A stretch of DNA of 64,000 nucleotides from a virus (Duplodnaviria; Heunggongvirae; Uroviricota; Caudoviricetes), in the IMG/VR virus record IMGVR_UViG_2939142107_000001, positions 1-64,000 of that record, one strand, 5' to 3'. Position 1 is the stretch's first letter, and every line of letters begins with the position of its first letter. Positions 14,160 to 15,908 of the stretch are shown one piece after another. Both the position numbers and the translations under genes were made by a program. The notes under the pieces were generated by a model. That model was not told the DNA's origin. It did no database searches and saw only the letters and a list, made by a program, of their open reading frames with translations.

Positions 14160-14440
14160 GGCCTCGTAAGTTGATAAACAACCTGCGACCCGCTGCTAAA
14201 CAGGTGGCAGGACGTGACGGGGTTAGCAGACTGGCACTTACGAAACCAGCAGGCCGAAGCCTCCCCATCACGCCCCACCATAATTCGGGCGTAACGTGGT
14301 TTACGGACACAAAAATACCGCAATATCGGAAATCTGCGGTTGTCCGCGTAAGTATTCAGGCTGCTAAACCCGGTCGCAGAATTTGCTACGACGGCGGAAC
14401 TATAAGCCTGAACGATTAAAAGGTCAATATGATGCGAAAA
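14160..14440 (-). ncRNA. c4: Candidate c4-like antisense RNA and its target repeats in the leader of icd-ant. Boundaries are approximate.
   Basis: Non-coding on the minus strand between Op51 and icd. It contains repeated GCTGCTAAAC / GGTTAGCAG-type complementary elements at 14187-14197, 14213-14222 and 14358-14369. Confidence 0.35.
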
Positions 14441-14465
14441 GATAGCATTCGCGACTTAAAAATAC

Positions 14466-14483
14466 AAATTTATTAGAGCAGAT
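14466..14483. promoter_or_regulatory. C1 operator (Op51-like) aaatttattagagcagat at the head of immI.
   Basis: Consensus match, located upstream of the c4/icd/ant transcription unit. Confidence 0.55.
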
Positions 14484-14763
14484 TAGTGTCGTGCAATAGA
14501 TATATTATTTGTGATGAAAAATAATGCAGAGGGATATTGTAACTTTAAGATGGATATCAATAGTCGATACATAAATTAAGTTAGCAATAAACTATTAACT
14601 TAAGAAATAATGCAGATGGTGAACTTGTCTCTGACTTTTCAGCTATACACAATAAGTTAGGGATAGCTTATAAAAAGTTGATTAATTGATATAAGTCAAT
14701 GGGAGTATTCTTGTTTACTTTTCGTTCTCGTGGTAACTTCTCGCCGGTTTTTGTTTTTCTGGG

Positions 14764-15285
14764 ATGATTCTTATGTCTAAAAAGTATACTTTATGCGCTC
14801 TTGTTGTATCTGCAATTCTTCTTTCTGGGTGTCAATCTAGCGGTGCTGATTATGCTGCCGATGTTTATGATACCGCTCAATTGAATTCGAAGCAGGAAAC
14901 AAAGACAGTCAATATTATCTCTGTGCTTCCAGCTAAAGTGAAAGTTGATAATAAAGCTAATAAAGAAGCGGCACAGACATTTGGTGCGGTACTGGGAGCT
15001 GTTGCTGGGGGCGTTGCCGGTTATAATGTTAAAGGCACATCGACACTGGGTGCTGTAGCTGGCGGTACTGGTGGTGCGGCTCTTGGTGCAGCGGCTGGTT
15101 CTTTGGTTAGTGATAAAACAATTGTTGAAGGTGTTTCACTGACTTATAAAGAAGGAACTAAGGTGTTCACTTCAACTCAAGTTGGTAAAGCATGCCAGTT
15201 TACAACGGGGCTTGCTGTGCTTATTTCAACTAAAGATAATGAAACTCGAATTCAGCCAAATGCTACTTGTCCAGAAAAGAAATAA
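14764..15285 (+). CDS. Lipoprotein with a lipobox LLSGC and a glycine-zipper region (GAVLGAVAGGVAGY...). It sits at the sim position and is a candidate superinfection-exclusion protein.
   Basis: Signal peptide plus Cys. AT-rich. Probable start at MSKKYTL, position 14773. Confidence 0.6.
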   Translation: MILMSKKYTLCALVVSAILLSGCQSSGADYAADVYDTAQLNSKQETKTVNIISVLPAKVKVDNKANKEAAQTFGAVLGAVAGGVAGYNVKGTSTLGAVAGGTGGAALGAAAGSLVSDKTIVEGVSLTYKEGTKVFTSTQVGKACQFTTGLAVLISTKDNETRIQPNATCPEKK

Positions 15286-15288
15286 TTT

Positions 15289-15828
15289 ATGAATAAAATT
15301 ATTTTATTTCTAATCTTTTCTACGTTTAGTGTAGGCACTGCCTTGGCTAACTCGTTGCAAAGTCAAATTGCTGCTATTGCTCAAGCGGAAAATGAAGGGC
15401 GAGCTAAAGAGCAGCAAGCTGAGGATGCCAGAAAAGAACTTATTCGCCAACAAGCACAAGCTGAACGTATTAGAAGAGAAAAAGCAGCATCTGCCGCTGC
15501 TGCACGCGAAAAACAGCGTGTTGCTGCAGAAAATGAACGTAGAGCGAAACGAGAAGCCGAGCTAGCAAATGACAAGAAGCGAGATCAAGCTTATGAGGAT
15601 GAGCTTCGCAAGCTGCAACTCGAAAGCATGAAACTCGAACTGCAAGCAAAAGCGGCTCGTGTCCAGCGAGAAAACGATTTTATAGAGCAGGAGTTGAAGG
15701 AGAGAGCAGCTAAGACAGATGTAATTCAGTCTGAGGCTGATGCAAATAGAAATATTTCTACAGGAAGTAAAGATTTACTGCAAAGCGAAGGAAAAGCTAG
15801 AGAGAAGAAAGCTAGCAGTTGGTGGTAG
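15289..15828 (+). CDS. Secreted protein with a signal peptide and charged coiled coil (179 aa).
   Basis: N-terminus MNKIILFLIFSTFSVGTALA, followed by a long E/K/R/A-rich helix. AT-rich. Confidence 0.6.
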   Translation: MNKIILFLIFSTFSVGTALANSLQSQIAAIAQAENEGRAKEQQAEDARKELIRQQAQAERIRREKAASAAAAREKQRVAAENERRAKREAELANDKKRDQAYEDELRKLQLESMKLELQAKAARVQRENDFIEQELKERAAKTDVIQSEADANRNISTGSKDLLQSEGKAREKKASSWW

Positions 15829-15908
15829 TAATCACTACGATTGCGAGCATACTGTCACAAATGACAACTCGTAGAATCTGTTAACAAACTAGATTCTACG
15901 AGGTTTCA

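Follow-up and report, generated by a model that had tools for sequence, protein, structure and literature searches.

The 64,000-nucleotide (nt) stretch of DNA analysed here (hereafter the window), taken from the IMG/VR virus record IMGVR_UViG_2939142107_000001, is a P7-type P1-like phage-plasmid that carries a pair of genes resembling Escherichia coli yfgH and yfgI at the position where phage P1 has its sim genes. The queried stretch around the pair matches phage P7 at 99.4% identity, and many E. coli plasmids match it at 100%. The two plus-strand open reading frames (ORFs) lie 3 nt apart (Table 1) and have homologues in the hundreds, the best at an E-value of 1e-100, which shows that they are real genes rather than chance ORFs. 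In P1, the interval between the operator Oc4 and LPsit/pmgC is occupied by simA, simB and simC, and a tblastn search with SimA, SimB and SimC against the 64-kb window returned no match at E<=1e-2. The junctions were set by aligning four cassette types, namely those of the window, P1 sim, phage vB_EcoM-Ro157c2YLVW (hereafter Ro157c2) and an Escherichia albertii plasmid. Homology among these types stops just after the C1 operator, at approximately 14481, and restarts at 15857, in the -22 box of LPsit, and the insert proper is therefore the intervening 1.37 kb. A first-pass annotation had proposed that the sim genes are replaced here by a plus-strand pair for a lipoprotein and a secreted coiled-coil protein; the replacement, and the presence of a lipoprotein beside a secreted product of helical type, are borne out by the junction alignment, by the P1 and P7 annotation and by the export signals of both products. 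The span that it assigned to the pair, 14440-15905, includes the cassette and additionally takes in the backbone operator and late promoter. The AT-richness claimed for the pair is also evident, with a guanine-plus-cytosine (GC) content of 40.2% in the cassette vs 47.9% in the window, falling to 30.9% in the 282 nt upstream of the first gene.

The product of the first gene is predicted to be a glycine-zipper outer-membrane lipoprotein of the SlyB/YfgH family. The protein is 68% identical to E. coli YfgH (E 6e-72), and a profile built from 25 homologues aligns with SlyB (PDB 7OJF/7OJG) over its full length (E 2.5e-9; query residues 9-162, chain residues 6-153). The ATG at 14773 is the likelier start, as it fits the homologues better. 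The lipobox and glycine-zipper segment reported in the first-pass annotation were both recovered: the motif LSGC stands at residues 20-23, and six glycines (G74, G78, G82, G86, G104 and G108) are invariant in the family of 25 homologues, with PF05433 matched at E 0.0023 in the protein itself and, among the 25 family members, by 15 at E<=1e-3. The lipidated cysteine is followed by Gln at +2 and then Ser, with no Asp at +2; Gln in this position is no signal for inner-membrane retention, and sorting to the outer membrane is predicted. The AlphaFold2 (AF2) monomer, in which helices at residues 64-88 and 94-113 are modelled at low confidence, has the layout of SlyB, and the only significant PDB match of this model in Foldseek was SlyB, in the SlyB-BamA entry 7OJF (E 7.8e-7, probability 1.00). 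The second Foldseek match was the decamer of TraT (9FS5; E 0.14, query TM score 0.25), and the Pfam TraT family PF05818 was matched in the hairpin region only, at 23.1 bits vs a cutoff of 31, which makes the protein a remote relative of TraT and not a member of that family. The same Pfam family was matched at E<=1e-3 by 21 of the 25 family members, always under the gathering score. Two C-terminal cysteines, C144 and C169, are invariant in the YfgH family. A search of NCBIfam gave no meaningful match. Two existing labels were rejected as annotation errors given the lipobox and the SlyB homology: 'DNA methyltransferase', attached to the first gene in PHROG 1277 and in RefSeq phage records, and 'minor tail protein / tail tip protein', attached to the pair in phage phi456.

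The second gene encodes a secreted DUF5384 protein that is predicted to form a single long charged helix. PF17358 (DUF5384) is its sole family match (147.8 bits vs a cutoff of 25, E 3e-43), and it is 47% identical to E. coli YfgI (E 1e-45). An N-terminal cleavable signal peptide ends in ALA|N, and structure prediction gave one continuous helix over residues 2-178, with a predicted local distance difference test (pLDDT) score of 87.8. The description of this product as a signal-peptide protein with a long charged coiled-coil body holds as regards the signal peptide and the long, helical body, 41% of the mature residues being charged and the composition rich in Ala, Glu, Arg, Gln and Lys; the coiled coil itself is unproven, with 16% strongly hydrophobic residues and a weak heptad signal. 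Its further characterisation as TolA-like was rejected, as no TolA family match was found at E<=0.1, there was no homology by family, PDB sequence or fold, and the model is all-helix with a cleavable signal peptide. The resemblance is to TolA domain II, and only in an Ala/Glu/Lys/Arg-rich composition.

The two families form an obligate two-gene module. In a census of one genome per species (n=78 DUF5384 loci), a YfgH-like gene stood directly upstream on the same strand in 76 loci, and the remaining two loci were contigs shorter than 340 nt. The paired loci were found in Enterobacterales, Pasteurellales, Pseudomonas, Tolumonas, Photobacterium and Shewanella, as well as in alpha- and beta-proteobacteria. 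On E. coli chromosomes, a 172-amino-acid (aa) homologue representing 3349 sequences lies between ppk-ppx-pdeF-yfgG and guaA-guaB and is followed by a DUF5384 gene; RefSeq names these chromosomal homologues yfgH and yfgI, and of 5426 complete E. coli genomes all but three (5423) carry them. The cassette genes are diverged paralogues of the host operon. In Xenorhabdus, yfgH-yfgI lies between plsY and tsaD-rpsU-dnaG-rpoD and not beside guaA, indicating that the chromosomal locus of the module is not conserved across Enterobacterales.

The sole functional data on the family point to stabilisation of the outer membrane. A December 2025 preprint (bioRxiv 10.64898/2025.12.22.696046) describes E. coli YfgH as an outer-membrane lipoprotein whose deletion results in sensitivity to sodium dodecyl sulphate and ethylenediaminetetraacetic acid (SDS/EDTA), higher permeability and depletion of outer-membrane proteins, and whose overexpression rescues knock-downs of outer-membrane biogenesis genes; in the same work clsA mutations suppress the yfgH defect, and AlphaFold3 (AF3) models suggest SlyB-like rings. 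Mutants in yfgI have been reported as sensitive to nalidixic acid (PMC3536626), and the orthologues in Salmonella Typhi (srgIL) are regulated by SdiA (PMC11619404). In the part of the PMC7553319 supplement that holds a K-12 transcript dataset, host yfgH has a baseMean of 63 vs 47,614 for slyB, and an extra copy could change the dosage, as host transcripts are so low relative to those of slyB. A literature search found no function for P7 upf50.5 or upf50.0 and no paper on DUF5384 or on phage-borne copies of the pair.

The P7-type cassette is present at full length and at least 99% identity in 161-163 of the 5426 E. coli genomes, at 163 plasmid and four chromosomal places. Full-length copies occur in 165 PLSDB plasmids, vs 137 plasmids with a full-length P1 sim cassette, and both ORFs are intact in approximately 160 plasmids. 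An intact allele of the pair diverged by 12% occupies the same slot in plasmids of E. albertii, together with extra genes. The pair also recurs as phage cargo outside the P1-like elements. In E. coli myovirus prophages with P2-type tail genes, a diverged yfgH/yfgI-like pair forms the last genes after the tail-fibre/assembly gene, and these prophages are found at two chromosomal sites, adjoining the host yecD-aspS or tor locus. Further diverged pairs were found in a Salmonella prophage-like region, in an approximately 102-kb Rep3 element with an endolysin-like gene, and in an island rich in insertion sequences (IS). The index of the collection lists one of the myovirus-prophage lipoproteins in 245 blocks. 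The homologues are thus ordinary host envelope proteins, as found in nearly all E. coli genomes, but the absence of phage association, which the first-pass annotation had coupled with this as grounds for refutation, is not borne out: the association is real and recurrent, extending over two alleles in the P1 slot, myovirus prophages at two insertion sites and the Rep3 element.

Not all apparent phage copies proved to be such. The broader phage carriage implied by TL-2011b and by approximately 60 IMG/VR contigs matching at 66-69% identity was rejected, as these carry the host yfgHI beside guaA within over-extended prophage boundaries. Many 'viral' records end in the host genes pdeF-yfgG-yfgH-yfgI, an example being the TL-2011b record at 41360-44784. 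Such false phage matches for YfgH arise because a prophage integrates beside yfgI/guaA and is called with boundaries that reach too far.

At least five types of cassette, all bounded by identical junctions, occupy the slot between Op(c4) and LPsit. Of 54 P1-like contigs of IMG/VR with both junctions inside the examined stretch, 21 carried orfA/orfB of the Ro157c2 type, 13 carried sim, 12 carried a yfgHI-like pair, six carried orfA with YfjT and SH3 (SH3_3) genes, and two carried other contents. Each of the seven full-length genes in three of the cassette types (SimA/B/C, the Ro157c2 orfA/orfB and the yfgHI-like pair) encodes an N-terminal signal peptide. The commonest cassette encodes the exported 215-aa protein OrfA (1680-2327 of the vB_EcoM-Ro157c2YLVW stretch), in which residues 122-168 (47 aa) are 49% identical to residues 1043-1085 of Sit (window 21198-21329; pairwise E 7e-9). 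The matched region falls in the C-terminal part of this injection/tape-measure protein, and the OrfA segment is possibly a periplasmic mimic of Sit. The 52-aa SimA of P1 is an N-terminal remnant of OrfA, and neither protein of the window's cassette has sequence similarity to Sit or Sim. Eight regions of low GC and high variability are listed for P1-like phage-plasmids, the sim region among them (PMC9603915), and the sim genes were non-essential in a CRISPR interference (CRISPRi) screen of P1 (PMC10695390).

Table 1. Features of the slot between Op(c4) and LPsit and its surroundings; positions are those of the window.
Feature	Position	Strand	Basis or remark
c4 antisense RNA of immI, landmark outside the cassette	14200..14285	-	Rfam RF01695, 70.8 bits, E 3e-13
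C1 repressor operator Op(c4)/Op51 (Oc4), immI	14466..14482	-	P7 annotation mapped with offset +10399; backbone, left junction of the slot; reverse complement TCTGCTCTAATAAATTT
Exchangeable cassette, P7 type (AT-rich leader, yfgH-like and yfgI-like genes)	14482..15856	+	Junctions by alignment
AT-rich upstream region, 30.9% GC	14482..14763	+	One weak promoter-like site, 14497-14525
yfgH-like gene (P7 upf50.5) for a predicted outer-membrane lipoprotein, 173 aa	14764..15285	+	Likelier start ATG 14773, 170 aa
Lipobox L-S-G-C, with Cys23 the predicted lipidated residue	14821..14832	+	Cys invariant in 25 homologues
Glycine-zipper helical hairpin, residues ~64-113, predicted membrane-spanning and ring-forming	14953..15102	+	AF2 helices, invariant glycines, PF05433 and TraT Pfam matches
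yfgI-like gene (P7 upf50.0) for a secreted DUF5384 protein, 179 aa	15289..15828	+	Signal peptide 15289-15351; conserved core ~15580-15825
Late promoter LPsit	15858..15877	+	P7 annotation; backbone, right junction of the slot; drives pmgC/tubA (15909-16475) and tail genes

The cassette is flanked by kilA, ant1/2, icd, the c4 RNA and the C1 operator on the left and by LPsit, pmgC/tubA, tub, pmgB and sit on the right. Within the cassette no Rfam family was found, and no conserved promoter, leader or RNA element was seen on comparing the upstream regions of six yfgHI contexts, which do not align with one another. Outside it, a match to the Hfq-binding small RNA isrK (47.9 bits, just below the gathering score of 50) lies on the minus strand at 14311-14392 and overlaps the c4-a1b1 target region upstream of c4. 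The sit gene of the window (18075-21815) encodes 1246 aa vs 1130 aa in P7. It contains an in-frame 212-nt direct repeat (18177-18388 and 18474-18685; 297-nt spacing, 86% identity) and, at 20215-20316, a 51-nt tandem duplication in perfect register that is likewise in-frame and internal to the tape-measure/injection protein.

Taken with the behaviour of the host proteins, the cassette may represent an envelope-remodelling module of lysogenic conversion that acts in the manner of YfgH-YfgI, the most economical reading by homology and one held with approximately even confidence. After export and lipidation at Cys23, the first product would under such a scheme be delivered to the outer membrane, where, like its relatives YfgH and SlyB, it would insert its glycine-zipper hairpin and assemble into rings enclosing lipids and outer-membrane proteins. 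The second product would be secreted to the periplasm as a charged helical rod of approximately 158 residues and would serve as the obligate partner of the lipoprotein, possibly through physical contact. If the pair is made in the lysogen, the carrier would gain a second YfgHI-type system under phage control, and the outer membrane might be stabilised and reorganised, amounting to lysogenic conversion of the envelope. The effect primarily selected would then be on the outer membrane of the carrier, which would be altered or made more robust, with exclusion of incoming phages a possible consequence. That the cassette is under selection of some kind is argued by its intactness at no less than 99% identity in more than 160 plasmids and by the diverged pairs in other phages.

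Several observations weigh against this interpretation. Nearly every host already has yfgHI, and a simple extra dose therefore looks redundant. The genomic context, comprising the sim slot, the sites adjacent to tail fibres and the slot alleles that are exported throughout, points to exclusion over housekeeping. In a simple neighbour-joining tree of the lipoprotein, built without bootstraps, the P7-type gene grouped with other mobile copies and not with E. coli yfgH, which hints that its role is particular to mobile elements. The AF2 monomer of the first protein has low confidence (pLDDT 57.6), and searches of the PDB for DUF5384 by sequence and fold were empty. The upstream region, described in the first-pass annotation as a strong AT-rich promoter region, is AT-rich but yielded no convincing promoter: it contained three sigma-70-like sites vs 3.1 expected in shuffled sequences, a single one of them, matching at 9 of 12 positions, being found on the plus strand in a scan upstream of the first gene.

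Superinfection exclusion by the pair, as originally suggested, is plausible on circumstantial grounds, namely the slot itself, the sites next to tail fibres, the kinship with TraT and the apparent branch of mobile copies, and is held with appreciably less confidence than remodelling of the envelope. The cassette would here be a dedicated replacement for sim, in which the ring lipoprotein and the rod block receptor use or DNA delivery of incoming P1-like or other phages, in analogy to the role of TraT in conjugation; the molecular mechanism would be the same as for envelope remodelling and the selected phenotype different. It is favoured by the cassette filling the simABC slot from junction to junction with no sim homologue elsewhere in the 64-kb window, and by the signal peptides found throughout the slot cassettes. 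The Sit-like segment in the OrfA of the commonest allele further suggests a slot devoted to interference with entry. The myovirus-prophage pairs lie directly after tail-fibre/assembly genes at the prophage end, a position beside tail fibres where genes for receptor masking, cor and llp among them, are typically found. Against this, Sim itself is said, in work of Devlin in 1982 and of Kliem in 1989 that PMC10695390 and PMC9177967 cite, to exclude only if cloned in multicopy, and the lack of sequence similarity between the cassette proteins and either Sim or Sit also counts against exclusion. Neither protein matched any defence model of PADLOC-DB at E<=0.1. The matches of most family members to Pfam TraT and the rank of the TraT decamer in Foldseek are in keeping with exclusion, as is the fact that TraT is itself a chromosomal family co-opted by plasmids (PMC11733297), but the TraT match remains under the Pfam threshold. 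In the covered parts of the supplementary score tables of PMC7553319, a phage-resistance overexpression screen, host yfgH and yfgI had low scores (~0.2-1), a weak indication with score columns unidentified.

A bolder combination of these elements, in which a SlyB/YfgH-family ring lipoprotein and a DUF5384 rod have been co-opted by P1-like phage-plasmids and myovirus prophages as an envelope-level exclusion device and phage counterpart of TraT, and in which the sim slot is a hotspot of interchangeable, exported, entry-blocking cassettes, one of them with a Sit mimic, is put forward tentatively and is probably not the case in full. A role in the lytic cycle appears improbable. The pair might be transcribed with the late tail operon and hold the outer membrane until spanin action, tune the timing of lysis or shield infected cells against lysis from without, in line with the position of the cassette immediately upstream of, and co-oriented with, the LPsit-pmgC-tub-sit late operon and with the lack of a detected intrinsic terminator between the second gene and pmgC. 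However, the cassette precedes the late promoter rather than following it, and its slot can be dispensed with, sim being non-essential in the P1 screen and sister phages having unrelated cassettes there; the pair is also found on chromosomes away from any phage. Slightly less probable again is a neutral passenger, that is, bacterial DNA gained by illegitimate recombination in an AT-rich variable region prone to recombination, with no selected phage function. The location in a highly variable, low-GC region is compatible with such an origin, and the near-clonality of the cassette, all copies being at least 99% identical, would allow its spread to be hitch-hiking. The intact ORFs in approximately 160 plasmids, the intact E. 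albertii allele in the same slot, the independent intact pairs in other phage types and the constant retention of both genes together all speak for maintenance instead.

In E. coli and Salmonella, P1-like phage-plasmids are frequent vehicles of resistance genes, and the benefit of their variable regions to the host is mostly obscure. Should the cassette toughen or rewire the outer membrane, approximately 3% of sequenced E. coli would carry a plasmid-borne modifier of the permeability barrier, and responses to detergent, bile and serum, and possibly to antibiotics or phage entry, could be affected. Should it exclude phages, the YfgH/SlyB nanodomain proteins and the DUF5384 family would acquire a second, easily assayed role, and the observation that the slot always holds exported proteins would be explained.

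Among known systems, the closest is P7 itself, in which the same genes, members of a known family, are already annotated. Upf50.5 and Upf50.0 of P7 (GenBank AF503408) share the position, the flanking operator and the late promoter, with 99.4% DNA identity, 100% identity of the lipoprotein and 99-100% identity overall, and there is no difference of substance. The P7 record labels upf50.5 an 'outer membrane lipoprotein of unknown function' and upf50.0 a 'membrane protein of unknown function', both similar to E. coli proteins. The host operon yfgH-yfgI has the same two families in the same order, with the same tight spacing and export signals, at the protein identities given above, whereas the cassette sits in the sim slot of a phage-plasmid and has an unrelated upstream region and a lower GC content. 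SlyB, the ring former of 7OJF/7OJG, is similar in its lipobox, glycine-zipper hairpin and C-terminal beta domain and is homologous over its full length, but only at approximately 25% identity and without the invariant cysteines C144 and C169 of the YfgH family. It also has no partner gene, in contrast to the obligate DUF5384 partner of YfgH, and the reported suppressors differ, being clsA for yfgH and mla for slyB (bioRxiv 10.64898/2025.12.22.696046).

TraT of F-like plasmids (PDB 9FS5), which acts in surface exclusion and serum resistance, is likewise an outer-membrane lipoprotein that forms rings via a helical barrel. At approximately 240 aa it is larger than the 173-aa product of the first gene, which lacks the large extracellular ring domain, and the cassette differs further in lying outside a tra operon and in having a partner gene. 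SimA, SimB and SimC of P1 share with the cassette the slot and its junctions, the orientation, the AT-richness, the status of non-essential accessory genes and the export of all products; they differ in having no sequence similarity to the cassette proteins and no lipoprotein among them, and sim alone has a known exclusion phenotype. Bor of lambda, Cor of phi80 and N15 and Llp of T5 are small exported lipoproteins from accessory phage genes, in general of temperate phages and often encoded beside tail-fibre or receptor-binding genes, and serve at the cell surface to resist serum or to mask receptors; they belong to families unrelated to YfgH and YfgI and are encoded by single genes, in contrast to the conserved pair that the P7-type cassette represents.

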